A DNA stretch of 58,928 bases from NCBI GenBank assembly GCA_964520045.1, contig CAZFMJ010000007.1, positions 1-58,928 on the forward strand, in the 5' to 3' direction. The position numbers were made by a program, and so were the translations under genes. The notes beneath the pieces are model-generated. The model was not told where the DNA came from. It searched no databases and was given only the letters and a program-made list of their open reading frames with translations. Source of the DNA: an uncultured Elusimicrobiales bacterium (GTDB lineage Bacteria; Elusimicrobiota; Elusimicrobia; Elusimicrobiales; CAZFMJ01). This document shows, in pieces, positions 21,315 to 53,110 of the stretch (position 1 is its first letter; every line of letters starts with the position of its first letter).

Positions 21315-21371
21315 GCGGAAAAGCAGAACGCAGATGACAGCGAAGCAGTCCCGCGCAGTTTGCGGGGCGCA

Positions 21372-21444: not shown

Positions 21445-21477
21445 AGCGTTATCAGCGTTCTATATTTAGTTGATGTT

Positions 21478-22425: not shown

Positions 22426-23289
22426 ATGTCTTTTCCTAATTTTAAGAATAAGTACGGGCAAAAACCTGTTTTCACGGCAAAGGACTATCTTAAATATCTG
22501 GAAAACACAAACCGTCTTCCCGGTTTTAAGCCTCCCGAAGGTATAATTTTCTGCTACAGCCGCAGGTTTATCGAACAAGTTCTTAGAAAACATAAAATAG
22601 CCGACGCCGCGGGTTTCGGCGGCAGAATATATCTATTGGAAGAGTCCGGCCGGCGGATAGGTGTCGCGCTATCGGGGATAGGCGCGCCTGCCGTTATAAC
22701 GAGGATGGAGGAATATATCGCCTTCGGGGTTAAAAAATTTATTTCAATAGGAACAGCCGGCAGTCTGCAGAAAGATTTGGATATAGGAAGTCTTGTAATA
22801 TGCGAAAAGGCGATAAGAGATGAAGGCGTGTCGCATCATTATCTTCCGCCGTCAAAATACGCATATGCTTCAAAAGATCTGACCAAAAAAATTATAAATG
22901 CCGTGAAATCAGCCGGCCTGAAATATACCTGCGGTCCAAACTGGACAATAGACGTCCCGTATATGGAAACAAAAGCTGAAATTAAAAAATATCAGCGGGA
23001 AGGGGTGTTGACCGTAGATATGGAAGCGGCATCAATTTTTGCCGCGGCGCAGCGCAGGGATGTTCAAGCCGGCGCAGTTTTTATGGTGAGCGATTCTTTG
23101 GCGGATTTAAAATGGAATCCGCAGTTTCACTCGGTAAAATTAAATGCGGGTTTTGAGACTGTATTTAATTCCTGCGTTTCGGCCTTGTCGGTAAATACCC
23201 GGCAGAACGCAGACCCATTCTTTCCCTCAAAAGCTTTGAGAATGGGTCAGTCCAAACTCACCGCTTTTATGGATGGTTTGGGCAGATGA
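22426..23289 (+). CDS. Nucleoside phosphorylase (PNP_UDP_1 family)
   Basis: GVLTVDMEAASIFAAAQ and ISIGTAGS motifs. The C-terminal ~25 aa and the stop codon lie inside a REP copy (23212-23284). Confidence 0.8.
   Translation: MSFPNFKNKYGQKPVFTAKDYLKYLENTNRLPGFKPPEGIIFCYSRRFIEQVLRKHKIADAAGFGGRIYLLEESGRRIGVALSGIGAPAVITRMEEYIAFGVKKFISIGTAGSLQKDLDIGSLVICEKAIRDEGVSHHYLPPSKYAYASKDLTKKIINAVKSAGLKYTCGPNWTIDVPYMETKAEIKKYQREGVLTVDMEAASIFAAAQRRDVQAGAVFMVSDSLADLKWNPQFHSVKLNAGFETVFNSCVSALSVNTRQNADPFFPSKALRMGQSKLTAFMDGLGR
23212..23284 (+). repeat. REP-like element, copy 5 (inside the 3' end of the nucleoside phosphorylase CDS)
   Basis: GACCCATTCTTTCCCTCAAAAGCTTTGAGAATGGGTCAGTCCAAACTCACCGCTTTTATGGATGGTTTGGGC. 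Confidence 0.85.
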
Positions 23290-23290
23290 C

Positions 23291-23612
23291 GCTGATAATT
23301 ATAAATATTAGGAAAAAAGCCGAAGACTAAACGCAAAGAACGCAAAGTAAACGCAAAGGACACAGACACATTCTTTCCTTAAAAGGCGTTGAGAATGGGT
23401 CAGTCCAAACTCATTGCCTTTTCCGCCTCTCCGTTTTTTGCGGATGGCGAGATCCCGCCGGGCTATGCGGCGGAAAGGTTTGTTTGGACAGAGTGAATCT
23501 GATGGATGAGGTGAAGACGAATTATCCAATCAGGTCGTTGGCATAGCGATGAAAGTTAATGGCTTGTAATCTTTGCGTTCTTAGCGTAAGTTCTTTGCGT
23601 CCTTTGCGGTTA
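23291..23612 (+). mobile_element. Miniature (internally deleted) GxxExxY cassette, copy B, with a nested REP
   Basis: It has the same leader and CGCAAAG repeats and keeps the 5' gene remnant ...CCAATCAGGTCGTTGGCATAGCGATGAAAGT. That remnant is joined directly to TAATGGCTTGTAA (the gene's last codons) and the right repeat. Confidence 0.6.
23367..23490 (+). repeat. REP-like element, copy 6 (with a ~60-nt nested insert in hairpin 2)
   Basis: The insert TTCCGCCTCTCCGTTTTTTGCGGATGGCGAGATCCCGCCGGGCTATGCGGCGGAAAGG is the reverse complement homolog of the insert in copy 3. Confidence 0.8.
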
Positions 23613-23674
23613 AACTTTTTGCGCTTTGGCTTGTTTATTAATGCGGGCGGTTATCTTTATCGGGGTGTTGTAGT

Positions 23675-25937: not shown

Positions 25938-25947
25938 AAAAATAAAA

Positions 25948-26170
25948 CAGAAGATTAAACGCAAAGAGCGCAAAGCAAACGCAAAGGACACAGATCCATT
26001 CTTTCCATGAAAGTCTTTGAGAATGGGCAGTCCAAACTCATTGCCTCAAAGGAAAGTTTGGACGAAGCGGATCTGATGGGAATGACGGGAAATAGACTGT
26101 CAAGGTAAGTCATCGGTATGACAATGCGGGGACAGTGAATGGTTTATAATCTTTGCGTCCTTTGCGGTTT
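25948..26170 (+). mobile_element. Miniature GxxExxY cassette, copy C, with a nested REP
   Basis: CGCAAAG left repeats, then a REP at the same position as in copy B. The remnant ends ...GACAGTGAATGGTTTATAATCTTTGCGTCCTTTGCGG. Confidence 0.55.
25995..26063 (+). repeat. REP-like element, copy 7
   Basis: TCCATTCTTTCCATGAAAGTCTTTGAGAATGGGCAGTCCAAACTCATTGCCTCAAAGGAAAGTTTGGAC. Confidence 0.85.
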
Positions 26171-26919: not shown

Positions 26920-26958
26920 TAAATCCTACATTTTTCCGGTTGTGACTTTTTAACGGCC

Positions 26959-27016
26959 GTCCCATTCCTTTCTCAAGGGCTTTGAGAATGGGTCAACTTA
27001 AACTCATTCGAGTTGT
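26959..27016 (+). repeat. REP-like element, copy 8 (second hairpin degenerate)
   Basis: GTCCCATTCCTTTCTCAAGGGCTTTGAGAATGGGTCAACTTAAACTCATTCGAGTTG. Confidence 0.7.
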
Positions 27017-27023
27017 GTGGAGG

Positions 27024-27088
27024 GAAGGATGGTAGCTGTTGTTTTCTTTTACCTTCTACCGTTTACCGTCTTCCGTCTCCCGTCTATT
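27024..27088. repeat. Heptamer arms overlapping the GH20 3' end
   Basis: GAAGGATGGTAGC ... ACCTTCTACCGTTTACCGTCTTCCGTCTCCCGTCTA. Confidence 0.8.
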
Positions 27089-30378: not shown

Positions 30379-32721
30379 ATGCGTTTAACGAGAACAATAG
30401 CAGCGGCATTATTCTTTTTACCTGTAATTTGTTTGCCTGCTTATCCGCAGAAAAACGTTTCAATCCCGGATTATAAAAATCCCAAACTTTCTGCCGAAAA
30501 AAGAACAGCCGACCTGCTGAAAAAAATGACGCTTGAAGAAAAAGCCGCCCAGACCCAGGCGCTTTGGCAGATGAAAAAACTCATAATGGACGACAAGGGC
30601 GATTTTTCCGTCGAAAAGGCTACGGAAGTTCTAAAATACGGCATAGGCCAGATTACGCGGGCAAATGAAAAGAAAAGCGGTCCCAAAGAAGGCGCTGTCT
30701 TTGCCAATGACATACAGAGGTTTCTTGTCGAGAAGACGCGGCTGGGCATACCCGCGATGGTTCATGAAGAGGCGTTGCACGGGCATATGTCAAAAAAGGG
30801 AACAAGTTTTCCGCAGGCGATCGCTCTTGCCGGAACTTGGGAGCCGGAGCTTCTTGAAAGGGTGTTTTCCGCTGTGGCCCAGGAATTGCGCGCAAGGGGA
30901 GCCCAGCAGGTGCTTGCCCCCGTGCTTGATGTGGCGCGCGACGCCCGCTGGGGCAGGGTGGAGGAGACATACGGCGAGGACCCATACCTTGTTTCAAGGA
31001 TGGGGGTCGCGTGCATAAGGGGGTATCAGGGAACAGGGCCTGTCATAGACTCAAAGCATGTTATAGCCACCGTAAAGCATTTTGCGGCTCACGGCCAGCC
31101 TGAGGCGGGGGTTAATATCGCTCCCGCAAATTATTCTGAAAGAATTATACGGGAAGTTTTCCTCGCTCCGTTTAAGTCTGCTGTAACCGAGGCAGGAGTT
31201 TTAAGTTTAATGGCCTCCTACAATGAGATAAACGGGATGCCTTCTCACGCCAATAAATGGCTTCTGGACTCGGTATTAAGGAAGGAATGGGGGTTTAAGG
31301 GGTTCGTGGTGGCTGATTATAACGGCATAAATGAACTTTGTGAAATTCATAAAATCGCAGCCGACAAAGAGGAAGCCGCAAAAAAGGCTCTTGAAGCCGG
31401 AGTTGATATCGAGCTTCCGGACATAACGGTCTACCAGACTTTGGTTCAGCAGATTAAGGAAGGAAAAATCTCTGAGTCCGTTTTGGATAAGACGGTTTCA
31501 AGAATTCTTTACGCCAAGTTTTTGACCGGCCTTTTTGAAAATCCCTATGTCGATCCTGAATATGCGGAGAAAATAACGAACAGCCCCGGGCATCAGGCTT
31601 TGGCTCTTGAGGCGGCCAAAAAAGCGATTGTCCTTCTTAAAAACAAAAACAATCTGCTTCCGCTTGATATCAATAAAATCGGCTCAATAGCCGTAATGGG
31701 GCCGAATGCGGAGGGCTGTCATCTGGGCGAATACAGCGACGACCCCGGCAGATGCGTTTCGGTGCTTGACGGAATAAAGGTAAAGGCGGGGAATAAAATA
31801 AAAGTCAATTATGCGGAGGGTTCAAGAATAACTGAAGGCGATTCGGATTGGCGGGGCTGGTACCTTGACGAAGTAAAATTGAGCGGTGCCGCGGAGAATG
31901 AAAGAAGGATAGCGGAGGCGGTTGAAACCGCCAAAGCAAGCGATGCGGTTTTGCTTGTGCTCGGAGAAAATGAAAAAACTTCAAGGGAAGCATGGGGCGC
32001 TGAGCATCTTGGAGACAGGGACAGCCTTGAGCTTCTGGGAATGCAGAATGAGCTTGTAAAAGCGGTGCTTGGGACGGGCAAGCCGGTGATAGCGCTTATT
32101 TTAGGGGGAAGGCCGCTTTCAATAAACTATATTGCGGAAAATGTCCCTGCAATTTTAGAGGGCTGGTTTTTGGGGCAGGAGGGGGGGACTGCCGTTGCTG
32201 ATGTGATTTTCGGGGATTATAATCCCGGCGGAAAGCTTACTATTACTTTTCCGCGTTCAGTCGGCCAGATCCCCGTATTTTACAATCATAAGCCGAGCGC
32301 AAAGCGGGGCTATTTATTAGCCGATAAGTCTCCGCTTTTTTCTTTCGGGTACGGGCTTAGTTATACAACTTTTAAAATAGACAATCTAAGGCTTTCAAAA
32401 TCACGGATAAAAGCGGATGAGAAAACCGTTCTTAAAGTTGATGTTGCGAACACCGGCGCCAGAAAAGGCGATGAAGTGGTTCAGATGTATATCAGGGATA
32501 AAGTGAGTTCCGTAACAAGGCCGGTGAAAGAATTAAAAGGATTTAAGCGCGTGACTCTCGAGCCGGGGCGGACGCAGACCGTGGAATTTAACATTACGCC
32601 GGATACGCTGTCTTTCCTTGATGAAAATATGAAGGAGACCGTAGAGCCTGGCGCGTTTGACATTATGGCCGGCCCGAATTCGGTCGACCTGCAGACGGTA
32701 TCTCTTGAAGTGGTGAAATAG
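30379..32721 (+). CDS. bglX: GH3 beta-glucosidase-type glycoside hydrolase
   Basis: 780 aa. VKHFAAHGQPEAG and GFVVADYNG (nucleophile Asp region). C-terminal fibronectin-like domain. Has a signal peptide. Confidence 0.88.
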   Translation: MRLTRTIAAALFFLPVICLPAYPQKNVSIPDYKNPKLSAEKRTADLLKKMTLEEKAAQTQALWQMKKLIMDDKGDFSVEKATEVLKYGIGQITRANEKKSGPKEGAVFANDIQRFLVEKTRLGIPAMVHEEALHGHMSKKGTSFPQAIALAGTWEPELLERVFSAVAQELRARGAQQVLAPVLDVARDARWGRVEETYGEDPYLVSRMGVACIRGYQGTGPVIDSKHVIATVKHFAAHGQPEAGVNIAPANYSERIIREVFLAPFKSAVTEAGVLSLMASYNEINGMPSHANKWLLDSVLRKEWGFKGFVVADYNGINELCEIHKIAADKEEAAKKALEAGVDIELPDITVYQTLVQQIKEGKISESVLDKTVSRILYAKFLTGLFENPYVDPEYAEKITNSPGHQALALEAAKKAIVLLKNKNNLLPLDINKIGSIAVMGPNAEGCHLGEYSDDPGRCVSVLDGIKVKAGNKIKVNYAEGSRITEGDSDWRGWYLDEVKLSGAAENERRIAEAVETAKASDAVLLVLGENEKTSREAWGAEHLGDRDSLELLGMQNELVKAVLGTGKPVIALILGGRPLSINYIAENVPAILEGWFLGQEGGTAVADVIFGDYNPGGKLTITFPRSVGQIPVFYNHKPSAKRGYLLADKSPLFSFGYGLSYTTFKIDNLRLSKSRIKADEKTVLKVDVANTGARKGDEVVQMYIRDKVSSVTRPVKELKGFKRVTLEPGRTQTVEFNITPDTLSFLDENMKETVEPGAFDIMAGPNSVDLQTVSLEVVK

Positions 32722-34287
32722 ATTCCTACATTTTAGCGGCGGTTGAAAAGGGATCGTCCTTATTCTTTTTGATACGGCGAGATAGGTTTTTTTGAAGGTT
32801 TTATAAATTTCTTTATTTTCTTTTGACGGTTTTGTCAGGTTTTTTTCGTCAAATTCAATGAACTGGTTTACAAAATCAGAAACGGTCTTTTTGCAGGTTT
32901 TCTTATTGTCCGTCCACGCGGCGTGAATAGCCGCGCCCAATGCCGCGCCCTCGCCTTTGACCGGGATAACGTCGGCCTCAAAAATATCCGCTATGGTCCG
33001 TCGCCATTCCGGAGATTTCGACATTCCGCCCGTAAGATGTATCACGTCCGCTTTTATCGGGAATTTTGTATAGCCTTCATACAGATTCATCACATGGCCT
33101 TCAAGCACGGCCCGGCATAAGATCTCTTTCGTGAAATCGCCAAGGCCGAATCCGAAAAACATTGGGCGTGCATGGGGCAGGTTCGGCGTTCTTTCGCCGA
33201 TAAACCACGGCAGAAGGATCTTTCCGGAATTTCCGGGCTTGGTTTTCCGGATAATCCCTGCAAATTTCTCATGGCTTAATTTATATCTATTGATAATTTC
33301 GTTATAGCCGTTTGCGAGATTTGAAACGCACAAAAGCGGAAGATAATTTCCCGTGGAATCGCAGTAAGAGGCTATTTCCCCGTCTTCGCTTATATAAGGT
33401 CTTTTCAGGAATGTGCAGGCTGTTCCGCTTGTGCCGAGGCTTATCGTGACAATCCCTTCTTTCGCGTTTCCCGTGCCCAGCGCCCCGTACATGTTGTCGC
33501 CGGAACCCGCGTCTATCATGCAGTCCGGCGAAAACCCGTATTTTGCGCAAAGCTCAGGGGATATTCTGCCTATGAATTCATCCGCCGGTTTTACGGGGGG
33601 GAGTTTTTTAATTAAATCCCCGCTTATGGCATTGCACACATTTTTTGCCCATGTCTTTTTTATGGGGTTCCACAGAGCCATGCCTGAAACATCCCCGGGC
33701 TCCATAACACGCACCCCTGAATTTTTACCGCCGGTCAAAAACCAGTTTATGTAATTATGCACCAGAAAAAGCGCCGAGGTTTTTGCAAAAGCTTTGGGCT
33801 CATGTTTTTTGAAATGGAGTATTTTGCCCGCGGTATAGCCGGGTTTCTGGGTGTTGAGCGCCGCTTTGAGCATTTTTTCTTTTCCGCCGACGGCATCCGT
33901 AAGCTCTTCGCATTCTTTGACGGTGCTGACGTCATTCCAGAGCTTGCTGGTTTTGCGGGTGAGATTTCCTTCTTTGTCCAGACATACGAGCCCGTGCTGT
34001 TGGCCTGAGACTGATATGGCTTTTATTTTTGCCGGGTCAAATCCAGAACCCTTGAGCCGTTTGAAAAGGATGTAGAGGGCGTCAAGCCACATCTGCGGGT
34101 CTGATTCCGATACTCCTGTCCCAAGACCTTTAATAACGCCGTTTAAGGTGCTGTATTCCAGCAGGTCCTTGTCGTAATTAACCGCGGTGGTAAACACAGG
34201 CTTTTGAAGGCAATAATCCAAAAGCACAAGTTTGGCTCCCTGCGTTGAAACATCAAGTCCCAGATAGTAAGAAATGTTTTTTATCAT
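32533..34287 (-). CDS. xylB: FGGY-family carbohydrate kinase (xylulokinase-like) with an unusual ~75-aa basic C-terminal extension
   Basis: YYLGLDVSTQGAKLVLLD, ISLGTSGTACT and HLTGGMSKSPEWRRTIADIF. Kinase homology ends near ...YLAVSKRIR. The ORF then continues 189 nt antisense into bglX. Confidence 0.8.
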   Translation of the reverse strand: MIKNISYYLGLDVSTQGAKLVLLDYCLQKPVFTTAVNYDKDLLEYSTLNGVIKGLGTGVSESDPQMWLDALYILFKRLKGSGFDPAKIKAISVSGQQHGLVCLDKEGNLTRKTSKLWNDVSTVKECEELTDAVGGKEKMLKAALNTQKPGYTAGKILHFKKHEPKAFAKTSALFLVHNYINWFLTGGKNSGVRVMEPGDVSGMALWNPIKKTWAKNVCNAISGDLIKKLPPVKPADEFIGRISPELCAKYGFSPDCMIDAGSGDNMYGALGTGNAKEGIVTISLGTSGTACTFLKRPYISEDGEIASYCDSTGNYLPLLCVSNLANGYNEIINRYKLSHEKFAGIIRKTKPGNSGKILLPWFIGERTPNLPHARPMFFGFGLGDFTKEILCRAVLEGHVMNLYEGYTKFPIKADVIHLTGGMSKSPEWRRTIADIFEADVIPVKGEGAALGAAIHAAWTDNKKTCKKTVSDFVNQFIEFDEKNLTKPSKENKEIYKTFKKTYLAVSKRIRTIPFQPPLKCRNLFHHFKRYRLQVDRIRAGHNVKRARLYGLLHIFIKERQRIRRNVKFHGLRPPRLESHALKSF

Positions 34288-34571: not shown

Positions 34572-35678
34572 TCACCATTGCTGTATGAGGATTTTTTCAA
34601 GTTTTCCGCGGTTTTTGTTGGGATTTAAGTGGCATTCCATGATGTCTTCATGCGGAAATTTAGCTATTTTCGCTTTGAGTTTGTGCAGGGCCTGCATGTT
34701 TATTTCAATGCAGGTTTCCGCCGGTATGTTTTCGGGGAAGATGTCTATGCCGTAATAGCCTTCATAGGCCATAGCCCAGAGAGAATAATAAAGAGCCATG
34801 GCTTCATGGGGGTTTACAACTCCGATATTGTTGTCCTGATCGTAATTGCCGTCCGGCTGGGAATTCCAATGAGTGTGGGCGAGCCGTCCCTCCATTCCGC
34901 AGAGGCTGTATGAGGCGGGCAGGATTTCAAATCCCATTTTGGCGTGGCCTATTTCCGGGTTCATTGCCACGAGCGCTTTTCCCTCTTTTAAGATTTTTAT
35001 GTTCGCCGGATTTTTAAGCTTTTCTTCCACCCTTTTTGCGGCAAGCAGTCCTTCGGCGGTGTTTCTGTAGATGTTGTTGGGGGCCGGTTCGTAAGGTTTC
35101 GGCTCTATGGCTATCATCACGCCCGGAACTTCATCCATCGCCTCCGCCATGGCGGTTTCAAAAATATCCCACATGTGCATAAATGGTTTTCCGTGCATGT
35201 ATCTGTACCCGTCTATGCCGGGCCACGAGATGGCGCATCTTGCCCCTAATTCTTTTACGAGCTTCAGGCCTTCGACCGCTATTTCTTTGGCTCTTTTGCG
35301 CGACTCTTCTATCGGGTTGGAAAGGCCGCCGAACTCAAATACGCTTTCGTAAAAGTGGGAAAACGGCACGGCCGCCACTTTTATGCCGGATTGTTTTTCA
35401 AGCTGTTTATAGAGGTGTATGTTGTCGCAATTTATTTCTTTTGGATAATGCGCCTCTATTCCAGTGACGCCGAGTTTGGCCATTTTTACGGCCATTTCCA
35501 TGCGTTCTTCGATCGTAGTGTCTTCAACATAGCGTTCGTGGAACCTTCCGCCTCCGGGCGTGAAATACCATATGCCCACGGACGCTTTTATCTCATAATC
35601 CTTTTTCAGGTTTTTAAGCATTACGTCGGGATTTACGGTTTTTTTCTGATATCTCAGGTCAGGCAGTATATAGCTCAT
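34572..35678 (-). CDS. Xylose isomerase-like TIM-barrel sugar isomerase
   Basis: 368 aa. IAIEPKPYEPAPN matches the xylose-isomerase EPKPxEP motif. Sits between the kinase and the xyl ABC transporter genes. Confidence 0.65.
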   Translation of the reverse strand: MSYILPDLRYQKKTVNPDVMLKNLKKDYEIKASVGIWYFTPGGGRFHERYVEDTTIEERMEMAVKMAKLGVTGIEAHYPKEINCDNIHLYKQLEKQSGIKVAAVPFSHFYESVFEFGGLSNPIEESRKRAKEIAVEGLKLVKELGARCAISWPGIDGYRYMHGKPFMHMWDIFETAMAEAMDEVPGVMIAIEPKPYEPAPNNIYRNTAEGLLAAKRVEEKLKNPANIKILKEGKALVAMNPEIGHAKMGFEILPASYSLCGMEGRLAHTHWNSQPDGNYDQDNNIGVVNPHEAMALYYSLWAMAYEGYYGIDIFPENIPAETCIEINMQALHKLKAKIAKFPHEDIMECHLNPNKNRGKLEKILIQQW

Positions 35679-35718
35679 GATTTATCTCCTATTTTTTTAT
35701 ACATTACCGGTTACTACC

Positions 35719-35746
35719 CGGGTAGACAGAATTCAGGAGTCAGAAT
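35719..35746 (+). repeat. GAATTC-type repeat upstream of the minus-strand isomerase gene
   Basis: GGGTAGACAGAATTCAGGAGTCAGAAT. Confidence 0.7.
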
Positions 35747-35822
35747 AGCTTATCCAAACTCACTTGCAAAATTTGGGCTAATTTTTTGTGTTTCTTGAAT
35801 CAACCCATACGGCCGATAATAA

Positions 35823-36821
35823 TTAATTTTCCGGGGCCGTAAAAAAAGAAGGAAGTTTTAATTTCCATTTGCATCTTCGGACGCCGGTATCGCCCATATA
35901 ATGCGTGTCGCCGTCCGGAATATGTATCTCTTCGGTCACAAGTTTTTCGCACCGGCGACTATTCCGTTCTTGTTTACGGATACATGAATTGTATGAGTAT
36001 TTCCGCCATCGCAGATATAGTTTGTCAAATAAGCCTGCCGGCGGTATGCTGAATCCTTTGTCGTCGCACTCTCCCATGCATCCGGCGTAGGCTTCGTTCC
36101 ATTTAAAAACTTTATCCTTTGTGCCGATCCACCGTTCCCCGATTTCACTGCAATCGGAGGCAGGCAGAGGTGTTTTCGCATATTTTTTAATCTCAAATCG
36201 TTTTCCTTCGCTTTCGCCTGTCAGATCGCAGTAATCTATTCGTTGAGACGGTGAAATGTGTCCGATACCGGATACGGTACAGCCATAATTGGGGCATGTG
36301 CGTGATGATGAAAAAATAAGCTCCGGGGTGTAAGTCCCGGGCTTTTTTAATAATTCATCAAGCCACGGTTCCTGCATGTATTCCCGCGATCTTTTTATTC
36401 TTTCGGCATTAATTAGCGTGGCAATTTCTGTTTTGACGTCTATTAATTCCTTTAATTCCTTCATGCGTTCCATCGAGTTCGGCGCTGGTCTATTTTTTAA
36501 AGCGCGAGCCTTCTTTTGTTTAAGGGATTTCATGAGTTCCGCTTCCAGCGCCGCTTCTTCTTGCTTTTTATCATTATTCCATTTCTGCCATGCTTTATTT
36601 GCAAGCGCGTCGGAGACGGTATAGCCGTAGCAGTTGATGGTGAATTTTAGAGGCTTGTCATATGGTTTCCCGTCTTTTTCAAAATAAATATCGATGATCG
36701 GGGACGGCATAACTATCCCGCATTGCAATACGTCGGAAAAACACAACAGAATCAGGAGGCAGTGGAGAGTAGGAAAACAAGCGGATAATATCTTAAAAGA
36801 TAATACGGAAAAAATTTTCAT
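35823..36821 (-). CDS. Hypothetical Cys-rich secreted protein, inserted in the xyl operon
   Basis: 332-aa ORF with a hydrophobic N-terminus, a central K/E-rich helix and a Cys-rich C-terminal half. Bounded by perfect 35-bp direct repeats (35785-35819 and 36832-36866). Confidence 0.6.
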   Translation of the reverse strand: MKIFSVLSFKILSACFPTLHCLLILLCFSDVLQCGIVMPSPIIDIYFEKDGKPYDKPLKFTINCYGYTVSDALANKAWQKWNNDKKQEEAALEAELMKSLKQKKARALKNRPAPNSMERMKELKELIDVKTEIATLINAERIKRSREYMQEPWLDELLKKPGTYTPELIFSSSRTCPNYGCTVSGIGHISPSQRIDYCDLTGESEGKRFEIKKYAKTPLPASDCSEIGERWIGTKDKVFKWNEAYAGCMGECDDKGFSIPPAGLFDKLYLRWRKYSYNSCIRKQERNSRRCEKLVTEEIHIPDGDTHYMGDTGVRRCKWKLKLPSFFTAPEN

Positions 36822-36824
36822 ATT

Positions 36825-38030
36825 CTATCCCTTTGTGTTTCTTGAATCAACCCATACGGCCGATAAAAGCACGAGGCCTTTTATGATCTGCTGCCAGAAG
36901 ATCTGCACGTTCATAAGGCTCATTCCGTTGTCAAGGCTGGCCATGACAAGAGCGCCTATCAGCGCCCCTGTTATGCTTCCGCGCCCTCCGGAAAGACTGC
37001 ATCCGCCTATGACGCAGGCCGCTATTGCGCTTAACTCAAACATGCTTCCGGCGTTGGCGGTGGCCGCGTCCAGACGGGCGGTAAGCACGATGCCTCCGGC
37101 GGCGGAAAGCGCTCCCATTATCGCGAAATTCCACAAAAGAATTTTGGGTATGTCGATCCCCGATAACCGCGCCGCCTCTTTGTTCCCGCCTATGGCATAG
37201 ATGTACCTGCCGAAAGTGGTGTTGTTGGAAAGAAATATCATTAGAGCCGATACGGCAAGCAGAATGATAACGGGGGCCGGTATCCCGCAGTATTTGTTCA
37301 TGACCGCCGTAAATATTATTATCCCAAGCGCCGATGAAGAGACCGCAAGGCCGAAAGTCCATAGAGGTCCGGCAGGCAGGCCGTAGGATATGGTTTTCCT
37401 TCTTTTGTTCCACATCAAAAAGGCGCATAAAACGGATGCGGTCAAAGATATTGCCCATCCCGCGGACGCCGGCACATAGGCTTGTCCAATGTCCCTGAAA
37501 AAGGTTTCCATAGGGCTTATCGTTATGCCGTCCGTTATTCCGAGTATGGCGCCCCTGAAAATAAGCATTCCGGCAAGCGTGACGATAAACGAGGGGACAT
37601 TCTGATATGCGGTCCAAAAACCCTGAAACAGCCCTATCAGCGCGCCCAGCAGAAGGGCTGAGAGTATCGCGGCAATGGAGATATAAAAGCTTATTTCGGA
37701 GACCTGTGAATCAGGGAAGCGCGCAAAAAGCCACGGCCCCAGCCATTTTACCTGCATCATGGCCGCGACCGCTCCGGTAAGCCCCGCGATAGAGCCGACC
37801 GAGAGGTCTATATGGCCGGAGATTATTATGAAAACCATGCCTACGGCCAAAAAGGATATCACCGCCGTCTGCCTGAAAAGGTTGGAAAGGTTCCGGGCCT
37901 CAAAAAATATGCCGTCCGTCACGGCGGAAAAGAAAATCCATATCGCAAGCAGGGCGAAGATCATTGTAAACGACCGCAGATGTGATTTTATAAAGTTCAT
38001 ATATTTATCCTCATCAGAAGAAGTCACCAA
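36825..38030 (-). CDS. xylH: Sugar (xylose-type) ABC transporter permease
   Basis: 401-aa polytopic protein with YAIGGNKEAARLSGI, the characteristic motif of XylH/RbsC-type permeases. Confidence 0.85.
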   Translation of the reverse strand: MVTSSDEDKYMNFIKSHLRSFTMIFALLAIWIFFSAVTDGIFFEARNLSNLFRQTAVISFLAVGMVFIIISGHIDLSVGSIAGLTGAVAAMMQVKWLGPWLFARFPDSQVSEISFYISIAAILSALLLGALIGLFQGFWTAYQNVPSFIVTLAGMLIFRGAILGITDGITISPMETFFRDIGQAYVPASAGWAISLTASVLCAFLMWNKRRKTISYGLPAGPLWTFGLAVSSSALGIIIFTAVMNKYCGIPAPVIILLAVSALMIFLSNNTTFGRYIYAIGGNKEAARLSGIDIPKILLWNFAIMGALSAAGGIVLTARLDAATANAGSMFELSAIAACVIGGCSLSGGRGSITGALIGALVMASLDNGMSLMNVQIFWQQIIKGLVLLSAVWVDSRNTKG

Positions 38031-38235
38031 ATCACCGGTTGCCAGCCGCCCAGTTTCCCAGCGACCCAGACACCCAGCAGCCCAGTCACCCGGTTTCCCA
38101 GCCGCTCAGCGACCCAGACACCCAGTCACCCAGCAACCCTTAATCTTGTCTTTAATTCTTCGTGCCTTAGTGTCTTCGTGTGAGTATTGTTTTTTTCCGT
38201 CTACCCTCTTCACAGCTGTCCAGCCTTCTTTCCTT
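38021..38235. repeat. Octamer-period array (CCCAGNNN / GTCACCC) inside the xylG-xylH spacer
   Basis: GTCACCAAATCACCGGTTGCCAGCCGCCCAGTTTCCCAGCGACCCAGACACCCAGCAGCCCAGTCACCCGGTTTCCCAGCCGCTCAGCGACCCAGACACCCAGTCACCCAGC. It contains an internal ~42-nt duplication. CCGTCTACCC..GCTGTCCAGCC follows at 38198-38228. Confidence 0.85.
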
Positions 38236-38331: not shown

Positions 38332-39867
38332 TTATATTGCTTCCGTTGCTGTAGTTATTCCTGTCGCAAGCCTCATGATTTTTTCCTCAGTCGCGTCTTT
38401 TGCCTCAAGCCTGCCCGCTATTTTGCCTTCGTGCATTACAAGGATATTATGGGATAGGCCGAGGATTTCCGGCAGTTCTGATGAGATAAGAATTACGCCG
38501 AGTCCGTCTTTTATGAGTTCATTGATAAGAGTATATATCTCAAATTTTGCGCCGACGTCTATTCCGCGCGTCGGTTCGTCCAGAATAAGTATTTTGGGCT
38601 CCGTGTTGAGCCATTTTGAAAGCGCCACTTTCTGCTGGTTGCCTCCGCTCAGCGTATCAACGGCGCAGTCGAGACACGGCGCTTTCACCCGCACCTTTGA
38701 AAAAAGCCCGCCTGCGCGCTTGACCTCCGTGAATTTATCAATTACGCCTCTTTTTGCAAGCCTTCTGAGGCGTGCCATTGAAATATTATGAAGTATGGAG
38801 TGAGAAGTCACAAGCCCGCTTCCCTTCCTGTCTTCGGTAAGCAGAGCCATTCCCATGCTTATGGCGTCCCTGCAGTTTCTTATATGCGCTTTTACGCCGT
38901 CTATATATATGCTGCCGGAGCGGTTTATTCCATAAGCTCCGAAAACGGCCGTGGCAAGCTCCGTCCTGCCTGAGCCCATGAGTCCGGCAATTCCCAATAT
39001 CTCGCCTTTCCTTACGGAGAAGCTCGCGCCGTCTACCGCTTTTTTACCCGGCGCATCGGGATAATCGCATGAAAAATTTTCAACCCTGAGTATTTCTACT
39101 CCGGAGCCGGAATTTTCAATTTTAGGGAAGCGGTCGTTGATATCGCGCCCTACCATTCCGGATATTATCCAGTTTTCGTTTATGGTTTTTGTCTCCCGGC
39201 AGGCGACAGTTTTTCCGTCACGTATAACGGTGACCGAATCCGTGATCTCCATTAATTCGTCGAGTTTATGAGAAATGTATATGCACGACACTCCCAACTC
39301 CCTGAGAGAACGCAGGATGGACATGAGGATTTTAATCTCATTGTCCGTAAGGGCGGAAGTGGGCTCGTCCAAAATAAGGATATCGGCTTTTCCGGAAAGG
39401 GCCTTGGCGATTTCAACCATCTGCTGCTGGCCGACGCCGAGATTGCGGATTTTTTCGTAGATATCAAGCTTAAGGCCGTATTTATCCAGAATTTTGCGTG
39501 CTTTTGAATAAAGCTCGTGCCAATCTATGACATATTTGATTTTTTTCTGAGGTTCGCTTCCGATAAATATATTTTCCGCCACTGTTAATTCGGGAGCCAG
39601 CGCCAATTCCTGATGGATTATCCGTATCCCGGAATTCTGCGCGTCCTTGACGGAATGAAACTTCTGTATGCGGTCTTTGTATAGTATGTCGCCCTCATAA
39701 TCGCCGTGAGGATATATTCCGCTGAGGATTTTCATCAGGGTGGATTTGCCCGCGCCGTTTTCACCGCAGAGTCCGTGAATACTGCCCGCCGCAAGCGAAA
39801 AATCCACTCCGTCAAGGGCTTTCACTCCGCCGAACGATTTTTTTATGTTTTTAAGCTCAAGAAGCAT
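38332..39867 (-). CDS. xylG: Sugar ABC transporter ATP-binding protein (two ABC domains)
   Basis: Walker A motifs GENGAGKST and GLMGSGRTE. Signature LSGGNQQKV. 511 aa. Confidence 0.9.
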   Translation of the reverse strand: MLLELKNIKKSFGGVKALDGVDFSLAAGSIHGLCGENGAGKSTLMKILSGIYPHGDYEGDILYKDRIQKFHSVKDAQNSGIRIIHQELALAPELTVAENIFIGSEPQKKIKYVIDWHELYSKARKILDKYGLKLDIYEKIRNLGVGQQQMVEIAKALSGKADILILDEPTSALTDNEIKILMSILRSLRELGVSCIYISHKLDELMEITDSVTVIRDGKTVACRETKTINENWIISGMVGRDINDRFPKIENSGSGVEILRVENFSCDYPDAPGKKAVDGASFSVRKGEILGIAGLMGSGRTELATAVFGAYGINRSGSIYIDGVKAHIRNCRDAISMGMALLTEDRKGSGLVTSHSILHNISMARLRRLAKRGVIDKFTEVKRAGGLFSKVRVKAPCLDCAVDTLSGGNQQKVALSKWLNTEPKILILDEPTRGIDVGAKFEIYTLINELIKDGLGVILISSELPEILGLSHNILVMHEGKIAGRLEAKDATEEKIMRLATGITTATEAI

Positions 39868-39898
39868 ATGAGGTGATTACTATGGCGTTTACACGCGG

Positions 39899-40101
39899 CA
39901 AACGGTAGACGGTAAACGGTAGATGGTAAAACAAAAACTGATATCAATTTTCTTGTGTTTGTTTTGTCCACTATTTACCATTTACCTCTTTCAGTCTAGC
40001 GTCTCCCAGTTTGCCTTTAGCAATTTAGCCGTCAAGCTGTCCCGCTGTCTAGCTGCCCAGCAGCCGCTTTTCTTCCGTCTACCGTTTACCTTCTACCGTC
40101 T
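39899..40101. repeat. Composite heptamer/octamer unit filling the xylF-xylG spacer
   Basis: CAAACGGTAGACGGTAAACGGTAGATGGTAAAAC ... core ... TTTACCATTTACC...GCTGTCCCGCTGTCTAGCTGCCCAGCAGCC...CCGTCTACCGTTTACCTTCTACCGTCTTAC. Confidence 0.85.
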
Positions 40102-41120
40102 TACTTCTTCATCTGCCTATAAACATCCTCTTTTTTGTGAAATCCGCTCTGCACTATGACTTTATCCAGATTGGCTTTTGTCACGGGCGTTACATCCAGA
40201 AGGATGGCGTCCACTCCGTCCACTTTAGATTTTGCCTTGGCCGGTTTTTTCCCGTTTGCGAGTTCTATGGCCGCTTTTACCGCTTCTTTTATGAGGATGC
40301 GGATATCTTTTAAAATAGTCACGGCCTGAGTGCCTTCGGCCACGCGCTGGACGGCGGCTATTTCTGCGTCCTGTCCTGAGACGGGCACTTTCCCGGCCAG
40401 TTTCTGCGCCGCAAGCGCTTGTATGGCTCCTCCCGCGGTGCCGTCATTTGAAGCCAGAACAGCGTCTATTTTGTTCTGGTTTTTAGTAAGAGCGTTTTCC
40501 GTGTGTTTTAAGGCTTCCTGCGGGCTCCAGCCTTCGCACCACTGTTCCGCGATCAGTTTTATTTTACCTTTGTTGATAAGAGGCTGAAGTATGTTCATAT
40601 GGCCTTTGCGAACCAGATGCGCATTGTCGTCCGCCGGGTGTCCCCCGAGCCAGAGATAATTGCCCTGGGGTTTAAGGGCGGTTACCGCTTTTGCCTGCGC
40701 TTCCCCGACTTTTACGCTGTCAAAGGAGATATAAAGCGACACGTCTTTGCTTGGTATGAATCTGTCGTAAGCTATTACCGGAATTTTTTCCGCTTTTGCC
40801 GCGGTTACCGCTGGTATCACGGAATTTCTGTTCTGCGGGATAATTATGATTACATCGGCTTTCTGCGTTATGAGGTTTTCTATCTGCTGGTTCTGCACGC
40901 TTTCGTCGCCGTTTGCCACCTGTATTATCAGGTCGGCGTTCTGTTCTTTCGCGGTCTGCTCGAAAATCTTTTTTTCGCGCGACCATCTCTCCTCCTGAAG
41001 CGTGGCGAACGAGACTCCTATCTTCACCTTGTTTTCGGCCGCATATACCGTGCTAACCGATGACGCAAAAATATATATCGCCATTGCAAACAGCAATATT
41101 GCATTTATCATTCTTTTCAT
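40101..41120 (-). CDS. xylF: Periplasmic sugar (xylose-type) binding protein
   Basis: Signal peptide, then KIGVSFATLQEERW and the PBP type I organisation. First gene of the minus-strand operon. Confidence 0.85.
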   Translation of the reverse strand: MKRMINAILLFAMAIYIFASSVSTVYAAENKVKIGVSFATLQEERWSREKKIFEQTAKEQNADLIIQVANGDESVQNQQIENLITQKADVIIIIPQNRNSVIPAVTAAKAEKIPVIAYDRFIPSKDVSLYISFDSVKVGEAQAKAVTALKPQGNYLWLGGHPADDNAHLVRKGHMNILQPLINKGKIKLIAEQWCEGWSPQEALKHTENALTKNQNKIDAVLASNDGTAGGAIQALAAQKLAGKVPVSGQDAEIAAVQRVAEGTQAVTILKDIRILIKEAVKAAIELANGKKPAKAKSKVDGVDAILLDVTPVTKANLDKVIVQSGFHKKEDVYRQMKK

Positions 41121-41533: not shown

Positions 41534-41587
41534 ATTTACTAAAATCAAAATAAGGCCAAAAATAAAAGAAAACCACTGAGACGCGGT

Positions 41588-41656
41588 CCCAGTCCTTCCT
41601 TAAAGGCGATGAGAATGGGGCAGTCCAAACTCATTGTCTGTGAGGAAGGTTTGGAC
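41588..41656 (+). repeat. REP-like element, copy 9
   Basis: CCCAGTCCTTCCTTAAAGGCGATGAGAATGGGGCAGTCCAAACTCATTGTCTGTGAGGAAGGTTTGGAC. Confidence 0.8.
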
Positions 41657-41729
41657 GGAAGCCGGGAAACACGGAAAAATGAGTTGGAATTAAAAGAATT
41701 TTGCAACTACTCAACGGCAGTAATATATG

Positions 41730-41922
41730 GAACGCGGATAATTACAAACATCTGGAAAAAAGTCGAAGACTAACCGCAAAGAACGCAAAGAGCACGGAGT
41801 GAGTCTGCCGGAGATAACGGAAAACAAATTTTCCAGCCAAGTCATTGGTATGGATATGAGGCATAGTTAATGGTTTGCAATCTTTGCGTTCTTAGCGTAC
41901 ATTCTTTGCGTCCTTTGCGGTT
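41730..41922 (+). mobile_element. Miniature GxxExxY cassette, copy D
   Basis: GAACGCGGATAATTACAAACATCTGGAAAAAAGTCGAAGACTAACCGCAAAGAACGCAAAG... then a remnant ...CCAGCCAAGTCATTGGTATGGATATGAGGCATAGTTAATGGTTTGCAATCTTTGCGTTCTTAGCG. The deletion junction is the same as in copy B. Confidence 0.6.
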
Positions 41923-42002
41923 TGGTTTGTTTATTGAGGCTGGGAGTTTTGGCGTTTCCGTGGTCAATGTTTGATAATGCAGATAAAAAAGCAGGAGGGA
42001 AA

Positions 42003-47278: not shown

Positions 47279-47427
47279 GACAGCGAGACGGCTAGGCGGC
47301 GAGACAGCGAGGCCGCAAGACGGCTGGACAGCGGTCTGGCAGCTCAGCTGCCCAGCCGTCCAGCAGTCTAGCCTTCTTAAACTGATGGTTCCGGCGGTCC
47401 AGCCGTCCAGCAGTCTAGCTTTTTTAT
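47279..47427. repeat. Composite octamer unit filling the LolA-like/FtsX spacer
   Basis: GACAGCGAGACGGCTAGGCGGCGAGACAGCGAGGCCGCAAGACGGCTGGACAGCGG, then inverted GCTGCCCAGCCGTCCAGCAGTCTAGCC and GGTCCAGCCGTCCAGCAGTCTAGC. Confidence 0.85.
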
Positions 47428-48636
47428 ATGCTGCTAAAACTTGCGTTCCGCAATATTTTCAGGCAGAAGAGGCGGTCTTTTCTCACTGGGCTTACTATCG
47501 CCATGGGGACTTTTCTCTGCGCTGTTTTTTTGGGGATAAGCGAGGGAAGCTATTCCCGCCTCATAGACGCCTTCACGCGCGATCACACCGGCCATATCCA
47601 AATACACAGGAAAGGATATCCGGACAAGCCGGTTCTTTGTAAAACCATAAACGGGCTTGATGAAATAGAAAAGGCGCTTGCGGGCCGTTCCGAGGTGGTT
47701 TCATGGACGTCGAGGATCACCGCGCCGGCCATGGCGTTTTACGGCAATAGATCAACCTCTGTAAGAGTTATCGGAATAGACGGGAGGAAAGAGCCGCTTA
47801 CCACCAGATTTATGCGGAAAATACGTTCCGGCAGTTTCTTTTCATCCGCAGGAAACGAGGTAATTTTGGGCGCGGGCGCCGCAAAAATACTGGGCGCGCG
47901 GACAGGCGGTGAAATAGCGCTTATAAGTCAGGCGGGGGACGGCTCCGTAGCCAATGCTGTTTTTACCGTCTCCGGCGTGATAGGAAAGGACAACGATTCT
48001 TACGAGCGGCTGAACTGCTATATGGAAATCCGGACAGCCGGCAGTTTTTTCGCGCTGGAAAACAGATATCATGAAATAGCGGTTCTGTTAAAAAAGCCGT
48101 CGCTTTCAGTTAAAACGGCGCAATTAATAAATAACGCCCTTAACAATTCCGATCTGGAGGCATTGCCGTGGCAGGAGATTGAAAAGCCTTTTTATAAGGC
48201 GATGAAAGCCGACAAAAAAGGCAATACGATAATGCTGGTGATAATACTTGTTCTTATGGCCGTGGGAGTGCTCAATACTGTGCTTATGACGATACTCGAG
48301 CGCACCCGCGAATTCGGCATATTGAAAGCTCTGGGCTCCAGGCCTTCCGGCATATTTTTGCTCATAGTCTTGGAAACGGTTTTCCTTGCGGTTGTTTCGG
48401 TGTGCGCCGGCATTGCGATGGGCATGGCCGCGAATTTCCTGCTTGGAAAATACGGGATACCTTCCGGCCCCGCAGTTGAGATAGGGGGGATAAGGTTTGA
48501 AAAAATATACGGCAAGGTTTCATTCTATACCGTCTGGGCTCCTTCTTCGGCGGCGTTCTTGTCGGCCCTGCTTGTGAGCCTGCTCCCGGCTTTGCGCGCC
48601 GCAAGAATCGTGCCGGTAAAGGCTATAAGAGAATAA
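47428..48636 (+). CDS. ABC transporter permease, FtsX/MacB/LolC type
   Basis: LKLAFRNIFRQKRRSFLT N-terminus, a large periplasmic loop and a C-terminal 3-TM FtsX domain (REFGILKALG). Confidence 0.85.
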   Translation: MLLKLAFRNIFRQKRRSFLTGLTIAMGTFLCAVFLGISEGSYSRLIDAFTRDHTGHIQIHRKGYPDKPVLCKTINGLDEIEKALAGRSEVVSWTSRITAPAMAFYGNRSTSVRVIGIDGRKEPLTTRFMRKIRSGSFFSSAGNEVILGAGAAKILGARTGGEIALISQAGDGSVANAVFTVSGVIGKDNDSYERLNCYMEIRTAGSFFALENRYHEIAVLLKKPSLSVKTAQLINNALNNSDLEALPWQEIEKPFYKAMKADKKGNTIMLVIILVLMAVGVLNTVLMTILERTREFGILKALGSRPSGIFLLIVLETVFLAVVSVCAGIAMGMAANFLLGKYGIPSGPAVEIGGIRFEKIYGKVSFYTVWAPSSAAFLSALLVSLLPALRAARIVPVKAIRE

Positions 48637-48742
48637 GAAGACGGTAAACGGTAGACGGGAGAAGGTAGACGGAAAAATATACCGAGGAAAATTTAATACC
48701 GTTTTTGTTTTACCGTCTCCCGTTTACCATCTACCTTCTACC
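48637..48742. repeat. Composite heptamer unit (core type 1) between the two FtsX genes
   Basis: GAAGACGGTAAACGGTAGACGGGAGAAGGTAGACGG / AAAAATATACCGAGGAAAATTTAATACCGTTTTTGTTTT / ACCGTCTCCCGTTTACCATCTACCTTCTACCG. Confidence 0.9.
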
Positions 48743-49988: not shown

Positions 49989-50022
49989 GAAGAAGGTAGA
50001 CGGAAGAAATAAGAGGGTAGAC
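49989..50022 (+). repeat. Heptamer arm after the FtsX stop, immediately 5' of REP copy 10
   Basis: GAAGAAGGTAGACGGAAGAAATAAGAGGGTAGACGG. Confidence 0.8.
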
Positions 50023-50093
50023 GGCCCATTCCTTCCTCAAAAGCAGTGAGAATGGGCCGCCCCAAACTCACTGATTTTAATGATTGTTTGGGG
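50023..50093 (+). repeat. REP-like element, copy 10
   Basis: GCCCATTCCTTCCTCAAAAGCAGTGAGAATGGGCCGCCCCAAACTCACTGATTTTAATGATTGTTTGGGGCG. Confidence 0.8.
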
Positions 50094-50210
50094 CGGGAGA
50101 TGGTAGATGGTAGACGGAAGAAAATAAGAGGGGAAACCGAGAAAAAATCACCTTATGTCTTTTTCTTTATTTATTGTACCTTCTACCGTCTACCTTTTAC
50201 CGTTTACCCT
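50094..50210. repeat. Composite heptamer unit (core type 2) before the ABC ATPase gene
   Basis: GGAGATGGTAGATGGTAGACGG ... ACCTTATGTCTTTTTCTTTATTTATTGTACC / TTCTACCGTCTACCTTTTACCGTTTACCC. Confidence 0.9.
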
Positions 50211-50220: not shown

Positions 50221-50946
50221 ATGAACATTCAAAATAAACCAGTCCCTGTGATAGACGTTGAAAAGGTGAGCAAAATATACGGCTCCGGCGAAACCGCCGT
50301 CACGGCGGTAAATTCGGTTTCAGTAAAGATATATCAGGGAGAATTTACCGCCATAATAGGTCCTTCGGGGTCCGGAAAATCCACTCTGCTTAATATCATA
50401 GGGGGGCTGGATATTCCGTCTTCCGGAAGCGTATTGCTTTCCGGAAAGTCTATAAGCGCGATGACAGGCAGGGAGCTTTCTGATTTCAGGCGCGATAGGA
50501 TAGGCTTTGTTTTTCAGTCATACAATCTTATTCCCGTTCTCAATGTGGCGGAAAATGTTGAATATATCATGCTTCTTCAGGGGATAGGCTCCGCTGAGCG
50601 CAGGCACAGGGTCATGGAGATGCTTGAGGAAGTGGGATTAGGCGATAAGGCGGAAAGAAAACCCAACCAGCTGTCCGGCGGTCAGCAGCAGAGGGCGGCG
50701 ATAGCAAGAGCGATGGTTTCAAAACCCGATATAATACTTGCCGATGAGCCTACCGCAAATCTGGATTCGGCCTCCGGCATAGCCCTTGTGGAGATGATGC
50801 GGGCCATCAATGAGAAAAGAAAAGTCACTTTTGTCTTTTCAACGCATGACTATAAAATAATAGAAAGAGCAAAACGCATGATAACTCTCAGGGATGGAGC
50901 GGTGGTGGAAGACGGTAAACGGGAAACGGTAGATGGTAGACGGTAA
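50221..50946 (+). CDS. ABC transporter ATP-binding protein (LolD/MacB type)
   Basis: GPSGSGKST, LSGGQQQRAAIARA and ILADEPT. The last ~12 aa (EDGKRETVDGRR) come from the heptamer array. Confidence 0.9.
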   Translation: MNIQNKPVPVIDVEKVSKIYGSGETAVTAVNSVSVKIYQGEFTAIIGPSGSGKSTLLNIIGGLDIPSSGSVLLSGKSISAMTGRELSDFRRDRIGFVFQSYNLIPVLNVAENVEYIMLLQGIGSAERRHRVMEMLEEVGLGDKAERKPNQLSGGQQQRAAIARAMVSKPDIILADEPTANLDSASGIALVEMMRAINEKRKVTFVFSTHDYKIIERAKRMITLRDGAVVEDGKRETVDGRR

Positions 50947-53100: not shown

Positions 53101-53110
53101 GGGGGAACTC

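Follow-up and report, generated by a model that had tools for sequence, protein, structure and literature searches.

The DNA analyzed here, called the window throughout, is a stretch of 58,928 nucleotides of contig CAZFMJ010000007.1 from an uncultured Elusimicrobiales bacterium (assembly GCA_964520045.1). On its minus strand, within an operon predicted to serve sugar uptake and catabolism, a permease gene and a gene for a xylose-isomerase-like protein are separated by a single open reading frame (ORF), ORF332. This ORF lies between two direct repeats of 35 bp, a duplication of the permease 3′ end. The features of the region, in the order in which they are read, are as follows.

36825–37964, minus strand: xylH/GguB-like permease, ending ...SRNTKG-TAG (Pfam BPD_transp_2; NCBIfam GguB)
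36832–36866, minus strand: direct repeat copy 1, an exact match, the 35 nt of permease coding sequence that precede the final 1.3 codons
36822–36831, minus strand: left junction GGGATAGAAT, read from the sequence, which completes Lys and adds Gly and TAG to the permease
35823–36821, minus strand: ORF332, 332 amino acids, the insertion cargo (profile family of 19 proteins; AlphaFold2 model)
35820–35822, minus strand: right junction TTA, read from the sequence, between the ORF332 stop and copy 2
35785–35819, minus strand: direct repeat copy 2, an exact match, non-coding
35778–35784, minus strand: AAATTAG, read from the sequence as an alternative permease terminus (completes Lys, then Asn and stop)
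35679–35777, minus strand: native-style spacer of 99 nt before the isomerase-like gene, with a CCAAA...TTTGG hairpin, a GTAGACAGAATTC-family repeat, and an AGGAGA ribosome-binding site
34572–35678, minus strand: xylose-isomerase-like TIM-barrel protein, 368 amino acids (Pfam AP_endonuc_2)

ORF332 is bounded by perfect direct repeats

The 35-mer, TTTGTGTTTCTTGAATCAACCCATACGGCCGATAA, is present in two exact copies (35785–35819 and 36832–36866, 0 mismatches) that form the longest exact repeat of the 58.9-kb window. It has no near-matches elsewhere in the window, with 0 expected by chance (100 shuffles). The copies have a period of 1047 nt and enclose a unique insert of 1012 nt (35820–36831). On the minus strand, the permease gene ends in ...LSAVWVDSRNTK-G-TAG (codons ...TTA TCG GCC GTA TGG GTT GAT TCA AGA AAC ACA AAG GGA TAG), with its stop at 36827–36825; AAT and the ATG of ORF332 (36821–36819) follow, leaving 3 nt between stop and start. 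At the other end, the ORF332 stop codon (TAA, 35825–35823) is separated by TTA, again 3 nt, from copy 2, which in the permease frame continues as ...AAC ACA AAA AAT TAG (...NTK-N-TAG, stop 35780–35778). Past the 35 identical bases, 0 of 4 positions match (GGGA vs AAAT), then TAG is found in both, and then the sequences are unrelated. The permease is intact apart from its last residue, and both flanking genes are kept intact. These observations confirm in the sequence what the original prediction had described, namely perfect 35-bp direct repeats that duplicate the permease 3′ end, one ORF between them, and gaps of 3 nt.

The start of ORF332 only 3 nt after the permease stop suggests that the two are translationally coupled. 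Together with the preceding AAA, the left junction supplies AAGGGA, a putative Shine-Dalgarno-like site 6 nt before the ORF332 ATG. For the permease itself, the 379-amino acid gene call P0010 was used; the mechanical ORF reaches a TTG at 38030.

No terminal inverted repeats were found on the insert, and its ends have no homology to the target in sequence. Folds of the repeat, of the hypothetical junction of a circular form, and of the downstream spacer were not above those of shuffled sequences (z = −0.04, −0.47, and +0.32, respectively), and an Rfam search of 32–42 kb gave 0 matches. Promoter and terminator scans returned consensus-level matches only, such as TTGATT-17-TAGAAT across the left junction, which are not taken as evidence. 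A by-eye comparison with dif consensus sequences showed no resemblance to a dif/Xer-type site; no formal test was made.

Independent contigs reproduce both junctions

Exact-protein look-ups followed by BLAST against the window identified both junctions at 100% identity in contigs of four other assemblies. One of these, L007 (MEGAHIT k127, SRR2177951, 4055 nt), is 100% identical and covers the permease, ORF332, and the whole isomerase-like gene. The left junction is covered by L008 (MEGAHIT k127, SRR2177956), the right junction by L003 (MEGAHIT k127, SRR2177954), and both by L002 from Joint Genome Institute (JGI) sample 3300009296.

With a metagenome as the source and with ORF332 relatives in archaea and candidate-phyla bacteria of similar habitats, a foreign ORF might have been stitched into the operon via a short shared sequence, an artefact by which the original prediction could have failed. 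This route is closed by the four assemblies. The junctions are 100% identical in the k127 assemblies of three runs and in the JGI assembly, one contig spans the whole unit, and the repeat of 35 nt is far shorter than k = 127; because of this and the independent reproduction of the junctions, an assembly artefact is effectively excluded, its probability being negligible. From these results, we conclude that the window contains a genuine, clean single-gene insertion at the very end of the permease gene.

Two further observations were made on these contigs. L003 starts exactly at the first base of repeat copy 1. A contig would break in this way at a de Bruijn vertex that has two predecessors, as might arise from a circle or tandem junction; this break is given little weight, as there is no matching break at the other repeat. 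In L002, positions 2052–2142 correspond to window positions 34839–34749; the contig matches the window exactly through ORF332 and for the greater part of the isomerase-like gene and then continues as an allele of ∼70% identity, with differences beyond the switch mostly at one codon position. This switch reflects either a diverged relative that co-occurs in the sample or a recombinant or chimeric contig, and such a relative could hold the true empty site.

The closest relative lacks the inserted gene

Among 5.8 billion proteins, the nearest permease besides the window's own is P0011, which is 68% identical. In the contig that carries it, L009, the permease stop is followed after 14 nt by the orthologous 368-amino acid isomerase-like gene. 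Relatives with a 59–62% identical permease have unrelated genes after it or a different operon order, and an ORF332-like gene after the permease was absent in those examined. Because the genes are adjacent in the 68% relative and the more distant relatives have no ORF332-like gene there, ORF332 is, as judged from these comparisons, a lineage-specific addition between an ancestrally adjacent permease and isomerase-like gene. The exact junctions, together with relatives that lack the gene at this place, support the precise single-gene insertion of 1012 nt plus a 35-nt duplication that had been proposed.

The original prediction had also looked to an empty site in related genomes. L009 provides the adjacent genes; at 68% identity, this contig is best read as the ancestral adjacency and not as a population-level empty site, of which no example was found. 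A permease search of GTDB species genomes and JGI metagenome contigs gave relatives of ≤49% identity only, and when the isomerase-like protein and ORF332 were looked up as exact sequences, the contigs returned either had the filled form or were too short for a decision.

The downstream copy had been described as an intact, ancestral-looking xylH terminus. It does read in frame as NTKN-TAG, but the permease of the 68% relative reads ...NTKGNKKILNF, which is compatible with either copy as the ancestral terminus, and the Gly of copy 1 also looks ancestral in that it matches the ...NTKG... of this relative. Two other origins of the repeat were rejected. A tandem duplication does not fit, as the sequences after the two copies are unrelated, and neither does a lost second permease gene, as in the closest relative only one permease gene is present, immediately ahead of the isomerase-like gene.

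ORF332 belongs to a small family of predicted secreted proteins

Homologs of ORF332, which had been described as having no recognizable homology, do exist, although they are remote: 8 were found by single-sequence search and 19 by profile among the 5.8 billion proteins (profile E 8.5e-54). The genome matches of this family are in Methanoregula, Candidatus Ainarchaeum (DPANN archaea), and one Peregrinibacteria metagenome-assembled genome (MAG), and one protein match is named as Bathyarchaeia. The family was not found in viral contigs, and ORF332 has no match in Pfam or NCBIfam. Based on this family affinity, the inserted gene is best explained as horizontally acquired.

The core of the family consists of a signal peptide followed by a domain of ∼110 amino acids with invariant Cys and aromatic positions. 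In ORF332, this domain, VYFEKDG..(F/Y)T(I/V)NCYGY...PGTYTPE..F..S..C..YGC...IDYCDL.G..F.I, follows the signal peptide and is interrupted in the alignments by an insertion of ∼80 amino acids; F47, C64, Y65, G66, D196, C198, and C224 are invariant in family alignments A1 and A2. The AlphaFold2 model (mean predicted local distance difference test score, 67.5) has an N-terminal helix, which would be the signal or anchor, and a β-sandwich interrupted by a long helical hairpin, with a low-confidence C-terminal third, and it matched no PDB fold (best E about 1). ORF332 is predicted to be secreted or anchored in the membrane and to be rich in disulfides.

The G+C content at third codon positions (GC3) of ORF332 is 0.456, the lowest among 17 genes compared (0.49–0.64 in the other 16), which also speaks for a foreign affinity of the cargo. 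Because the repeats are identical at 35 of 35 positions and this GC3 is the lowest in the neighborhood, the insertion at this site is probably recent.

Outside the window, members of the ORF332 family form a conserved two-gene module (L101 415–1816; L018 4064–5446; L102 4880–7033; L015 3908–5191). The first gene encodes a secreted Cys-containing protein, usually with a tail resembling CFFKxLFGxxC or CWFGWFLGRGC. The product of the second gene is a polytopic membrane protein of ∼115 amino acids (MLYETRFLISL...) that is 46–52% identical between the Peregrinibacteria MAG and two metagenome contigs; Methanoregula L015 has a clearly related copy. A convincing Pfam match is lacking for both proteins, which may form a pair dedicated to sorting or processing at the C terminus. 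The CFFKxLFGxxC-like tail is absent from ORF332, which ends ...KLPSFFTAPEN, and tblastn found no ∼115-amino acid membrane partner in the window.

In the Methanoregula MAG (L015 3594–4768), a truncated paralog of 105 amino acids lies directly upstream of the full-length family gene; it consists of a signal peptide, the start of the domain, and the C-terminal tail, and a 16-nt tail-coding sequence is common to both genes. This 16-mer was rejected as an insertion scar, as the genes are tandem paralogs with a common C-terminal tail. A 19-mer in the Peregrinibacteria contig L018 was likewise rejected, as it belongs to a repeated promoter-like TTTGCAAA...TATATT region.

A second repeat-flanked unit is present in the window

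One other unit of similar form was found.

52982–54015, plus strand: second repeat-flanked unit with one ORF, bounded by 26-nt perfect direct repeats (52982–53007 and 53990–54015) at a spacing of 1008 nt

Besides the 35-mer, only the 26-mer is a unique perfect repeat of about this length in the window, and the unit is confirmed by an independent contig, L012. Its ORF (53111–53911, 266 amino acids), situated in an intergenic region, encodes a membrane anchor and a Cys-rich C-terminal domain. It has its own octamer-repeat leader and terminator-like hairpin; because the leader is made of the genome's octamer repeats and the hairpin accompanies it, this ORF looks native in style. Its family has 4674 matches, with a conserved N-terminal region of ∼100 amino acids and hypervariable (Cys-rich) C-terminal domains; the genomic matches are mostly in Omnitrophota and Elusimicrobiota, with some in Planctomycetia. 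This distribution also gives a hint of where the genome of the window belongs at the level of phylum, probably close to Omnitrophota or Elusimicrobiota. Isolated perfect repeats of at least 26 nt at such spacings were ∼10 times rarer per base in ∼1.06 Mb of comparison loci, a rough comparison with a non-random sample. Neither terminal inverted repeats nor end motifs were found on the second insert, and viral contigs contain no copy of the 35-mer or of the 26-mer.

A direct repeat of 65 nt with 88% identity (50144–50208 and 50977–51041), composed of a unique leader-like segment and heptamers, precedes two consecutive genes, for an ATP-binding cassette (ABC) ATPase (50221–50946) and for a 432-amino acid ORF without a Pfam match. 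Either a 5′ region was duplicated here or an earlier event of this type took place.

Host operon and neighboring genes

Beyond the genes at the insertion, the operon contains the following.

40101–41120, minus strand: xylF-like periplasmic sugar-binding protein, the first gene of the operon (Pfam Peripla_BP_4, E 1.1e-58)
38332–39867, minus strand: xylG-like ABC ATPase with two ABC domains (Pfam ABC_tran, two stretches, E 1.5e-48)
32533–34287, minus strand: XylB-like FGGY sugar kinase (Pfam and NCBIfam)

The best NCBIfam score of the permease is to GguB, a multiple-monosaccharide permease (369.3 bits vs a 450-bit cut-off). The isomerase-like protein scores 63.7 bits against the XylA family (TIGR02631; cut-off 447), and the kinase scores 361.7 bits against XylB (cut-off 380). 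Because all three score below the family cut-offs, the operon is, by sequence, a xyl-like operon for sugar uptake and catabolism and not a proven xylose operon. Of the xyl operon with an isomerase that had been predicted, the xyl-like gene set stands, but the isomerase is far below the XylA cut-off and the kinase and permease are below theirs.

Other large ORFs of the window have ordinary chromosomal functions by Pfam, for example Mfd, alanine racemase, glycoside hydrolases, ABC/FtsX/LolA-like proteins, and a phosphorylase. A FliG-like protein of 647 amino acids (54278–56221) has the FliG middle and C-terminal domains, C-terminal tetratricopeptide repeats, and an N-terminal signal- or membrane-like segment, an architecture that appears unusual for a FliG-like protein.

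The intergenic regions are built of degenerate tandem heptamers and, in some cases, octamers, and they contain two dispersed families of elements. Examples are as follows.

48632–48742, 50903–51041, 56218–56373, and 39886–40104: repeats with a 7-nt period
38033–38147, 47283–47425, 53002–53100, and 40020–40067: repeats with an 8-nt period
6375–6452, 21369–21446, 23209–23286, 23382–23419, 25989–26066, 26955–27032, 41582–41659, and 50019–50096: sites of the two dispersed families
4734–4820, 23313–23399, 25941–26027, and 41732–41790: further sites of the two dispersed families, with inverted partners at 5166–5254, 23555–23643, and 41866–41954

The heptamers read AGACGGT or GGTAGAC after stop codons and as the complement, ACCGTCT or GTCTACC, before the next start, such that the two sides can pair; the octamers read CCCAGNNN or GCTGGACR. 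These heptamers recall the short tandemly repeated repetitive (STRR) heptamers of cyanobacteria. They also recall the intergenic TAACTGA repeats of Beggiatoaceae (PMC4679880). One dispersed intergenic family is a double hairpin of ∼78 nt resembling repetitive extragenic palindromic (REP) elements, CCCATTC..GAGAATGGG plus CAGTCCAAAC..GTTTGGAC, half of which is the CCAAA...TTTGG hairpin of the spacer before the isomerase-like gene. The second is a CGCAAAGAACGCAAAG-type element that occurs as inverted pairs around short segments.

Comparison with known systems

Several known systems share features with the insertion. In cis-mobilizable elements (CIMEs) and other elements that target gene 3′ ends, direct repeats of tens of bp (attL and attR) also arise by duplication of the target gene's 3′ end, the gene is rebuilt with an element-borne terminus, and no integrase lies inside the repeats (PMC5704250); elements that retain attL and attR without an integrase are a described class, the CIMEs (PMC5704250). 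Unlike CIMEs, the unit here is 1 kb in size and consists of one tightly packed ORF, with no decayed-element remnants between the repeats and no cognate integrase known, and the second event has an unrelated sequence; the match to CIMEs is structural only. With prophages, integrative and conjugative elements, and integrative and mobilizable elements, the insertion shares direct repeats that duplicate a gene 3′ end, and it has no integrase or recombinase within the insert, where the only supported ORF is ORF332, which lacks a recombinase domain.

Integron cassettes are also promoterless single-ORF units of ∼1 kb with almost no non-coding DNA, placed in sense orientation in an expressed array or operon. 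They differ in having an attC hairpin (a palindrome of ∼57–141 nt), IntI, and attI, and in being bounded by a 7-bp core site. At the ORF332 3′ end, only 3 nt separate the stop from the repeat and no attC-like fold was found, and for an IntI or attI/Pc platform, no integrase domain was present in window ORFs of ≥150 amino acids. The term cassette used in the original prediction is therefore unsupported in its integron sense, for want of attC, IntI, and attI. Its statement that no integrase, attC-like site, or insertion sequence (IS) lies nearby holds, as Pfam scans of the window and fold tests found none. With respect to ISs, miniature inverted-repeat transposable elements, and transposons, there are no inverted repeats and no transposase in the window, and the duplications are of 35 and 26 bp. 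With respect to casposon or Cas1 integration, the window contains no Cas1 domain and the duplication lengths differ (35 vs 26); a trans-acting Cas1-type enzyme may be encoded elsewhere in the genome.

Small variable segments flanked by repeats ("microdiversity"), known from well-studied species as a class without an assigned mechanism, have been surveyed, with flanking repeats, mostly <30 bp, in 10–18% of segments (Touzain et al. 2010, PMC2884548), and these segments were ascribed to illegitimate or short-homology recombination (PMC2884548). The present insertion is likewise a kb-scale strain- or lineage-specific segment with short direct repeats that is not attributable to known mobile elements. 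Unlike those of the survey, its repeats and those of the second unit (35 and 26 bp) are perfect and placed with both flanking genes intact. A Campbell-type single crossover gives an identical product structure, an insert between direct copies of a common segment, whereas here the length of homology is at the minimum for RecA, and the model does not account for where a natural circle would have obtained the common segment. Phage morons are also single extra genes of unrelated function between two conserved neighbors, but they have their own promoter and terminator and no bounding duplications, and the context here is chromosomal, not a prophage. The insertion is unusual in neatness more than in kind, as an att-like or repeat-flanked small insertion.

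Possible mechanisms of insertion

The mechanism that we rank first, weakly and tentatively, is Campbell-type integration of a ∼1-kb circle. Such a circle of ∼1,047 bp would consist of ORF332 and a 48-nt non-coding stretch that holds a copy of the permease terminus, and one reciprocal crossover within the 35-bp identity would integrate it. The catalyst could be a recombinase encoded elsewhere, acting at att-like sites as for integrase-less cis-mobilizable elements, or host homologous recombination, which would here operate just above its minimal homology length. The product would carry the 35 bp as direct repeats on both sides, with the element-borne terminus (...NTKG-stop) staying on the gene and the other terminus (...NTKN-stop) displaced downstream. 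The junction of the circle would read ORF332 3′ end ...GAAAATTAATTA, repeat, GGGATAGAATATG... ORF332 5′ end, and the second unit, with its 26-bp repeats, would come from the same process. The sharp edge of identity (35/35, then 0/4, then a stop codon) is consistent with such a crossover, as is the fact that copy 1 plus GGGATAG makes a complete permease terminus with Gly as in the relative's ...NTKG.... The RecA threshold is ∼30 bp, and the repeats of 35 and 26 bp are near it (PMC2884548).

A number of points weigh against this mechanism or against a recent foreign arrival. The circle model leaves unexplained how a foreign circle first obtained 35 bp identical to its target, and CIMEs decay from larger elements, such that one would not expect an ORF whose ends come as close to the repeats as 10 nt and 3 nt. 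No empty site was found in the population itself, where all contigs found have the filled form; the exact ...NTKN permease is absent from a 15-billion-protein collection; and no circular form or excision product was seen. Local alignment found no motif common to the four junctions of both events (best p = 0.11), which argues against a single site-specific recombinase, and Pfam found no integrase, transposase, Cas1, or reverse transcriptase among window ORFs of ≥150 amino acids (59 kb). Finally, the synonymous codon choice of ORF332 is not an outlier (z = −1.3), and because of this, the gene may have resided in the genome longer than the repeats suggest. ORF332 is thus, on sequence grounds, foreign by family affinity, yet apparently not a very recent arrival from a compositionally distant donor, and it may have reached this site from elsewhere in the same genome.

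The absence of a common junction motif and the unrelated repeat sequences of the two events fit a sequence-independent process, such as target-site duplication, which we consider possible if rather doubtful. Here, nicks 35 nt apart (26 in the second event) would be followed by joining of a linear ∼1-kb fragment and filling of the gaps. The staggered break could be made by a trans-acting transposase-, casposase-, or Cas1-like integrase, by end-joining, or by a template switch re-primed 35 nt upstream. The sharp duplication edges and the lack of homology between insert ends and target also fit, and no part of the target would have to be present on the incoming DNA beforehand. The IS1634 family is known for long target duplications of variable length, and CRISPR repeat duplications are of ∼28–37 bp, which counts in favor of this process. 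Neither insert has terminal inverted repeats or end motifs, however; the window has no transposase or Cas1; a stagger of 26–35 bp is outside the ordinary transposase range; and the in-frame stop, Shine-Dalgarno-like site, and 3-nt spacing of the left junction would need chance or selection. We hold it quite unlikely that the lineage has an undescribed form of single-gene mobility, in which ∼1-kb units are inserted anywhere, including exact gene ends in operons, with 26–35 bp of target duplicated. This would imply either a trans-acting long-stagger integrase (Cas1- or casposase-like, or reverse-transcriptase-primed) or short-homology gene circles.

Copy 1 followed by GGGATAG has the look of a genuine permease terminus that runs directly into ORF332. 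This would also be explained if the segment "permease 3′ end, ORF332" came from a sibling strain by homology-facilitated illegitimate recombination, a reading that we judge unlikely. The donor segment would recombine within the permease, its other end would join illegitimately 42 nt upstream of the recipient stop, and the recipient terminus would become the second copy. A diverged relative glimpsed in the JGI sample, where L002 switches allele inside the isomerase-like gene, favors this origin. Nevertheless, this origin leaves to be explained why ORF332 would be placed 3 nt behind a permease gene in the donor, no donor arrangement was found, and ORF332 was found only in its present context. 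The usual outcome of recombination of this type is loss of recipient DNA, not its duplication, which also counts against it. In its favor, the process has been described in naturally transformable bacteria and in Escherichia coli conjugation (PMC2884548; PMC3240628).

The near-native codon usage of ORF332 (z = −1.3) and the presence of the filled form in five of five assemblies, with no empty allele found, would suit an older insertion, in which the repeats are kept identical by a function of copy 2 (for example, as an mRNA processing or stability element ahead of the isomerase-like gene) or by gene conversion. Gene conversion between 35-bp repeats would be inefficient, however, no RNA family match and no significant fold were found in or around the repeat, and a recent event is the simplest source of 35 identical nt that end so abruptly; we regard an older insertion as improbable.

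Implications

The insertion would be a very small, cleanly delimited case of a single foreign gene entering a bacterial operon with its neighbors undamaged, carrying a cargo of mainly archaeal and candidate-phyla affinity. The presence of two units in 59 kb hints that the process recurs in this genome. If this proves true genome-wide, or if the circle is found, it would point to a gene-by-gene route of acquisition in uncultivated groundwater bacteria that operates without an integron or a classical mobile element. If not, the insertion would be one more case of repeat-flanked microdiversity that arose from rare illegitimate recombination.

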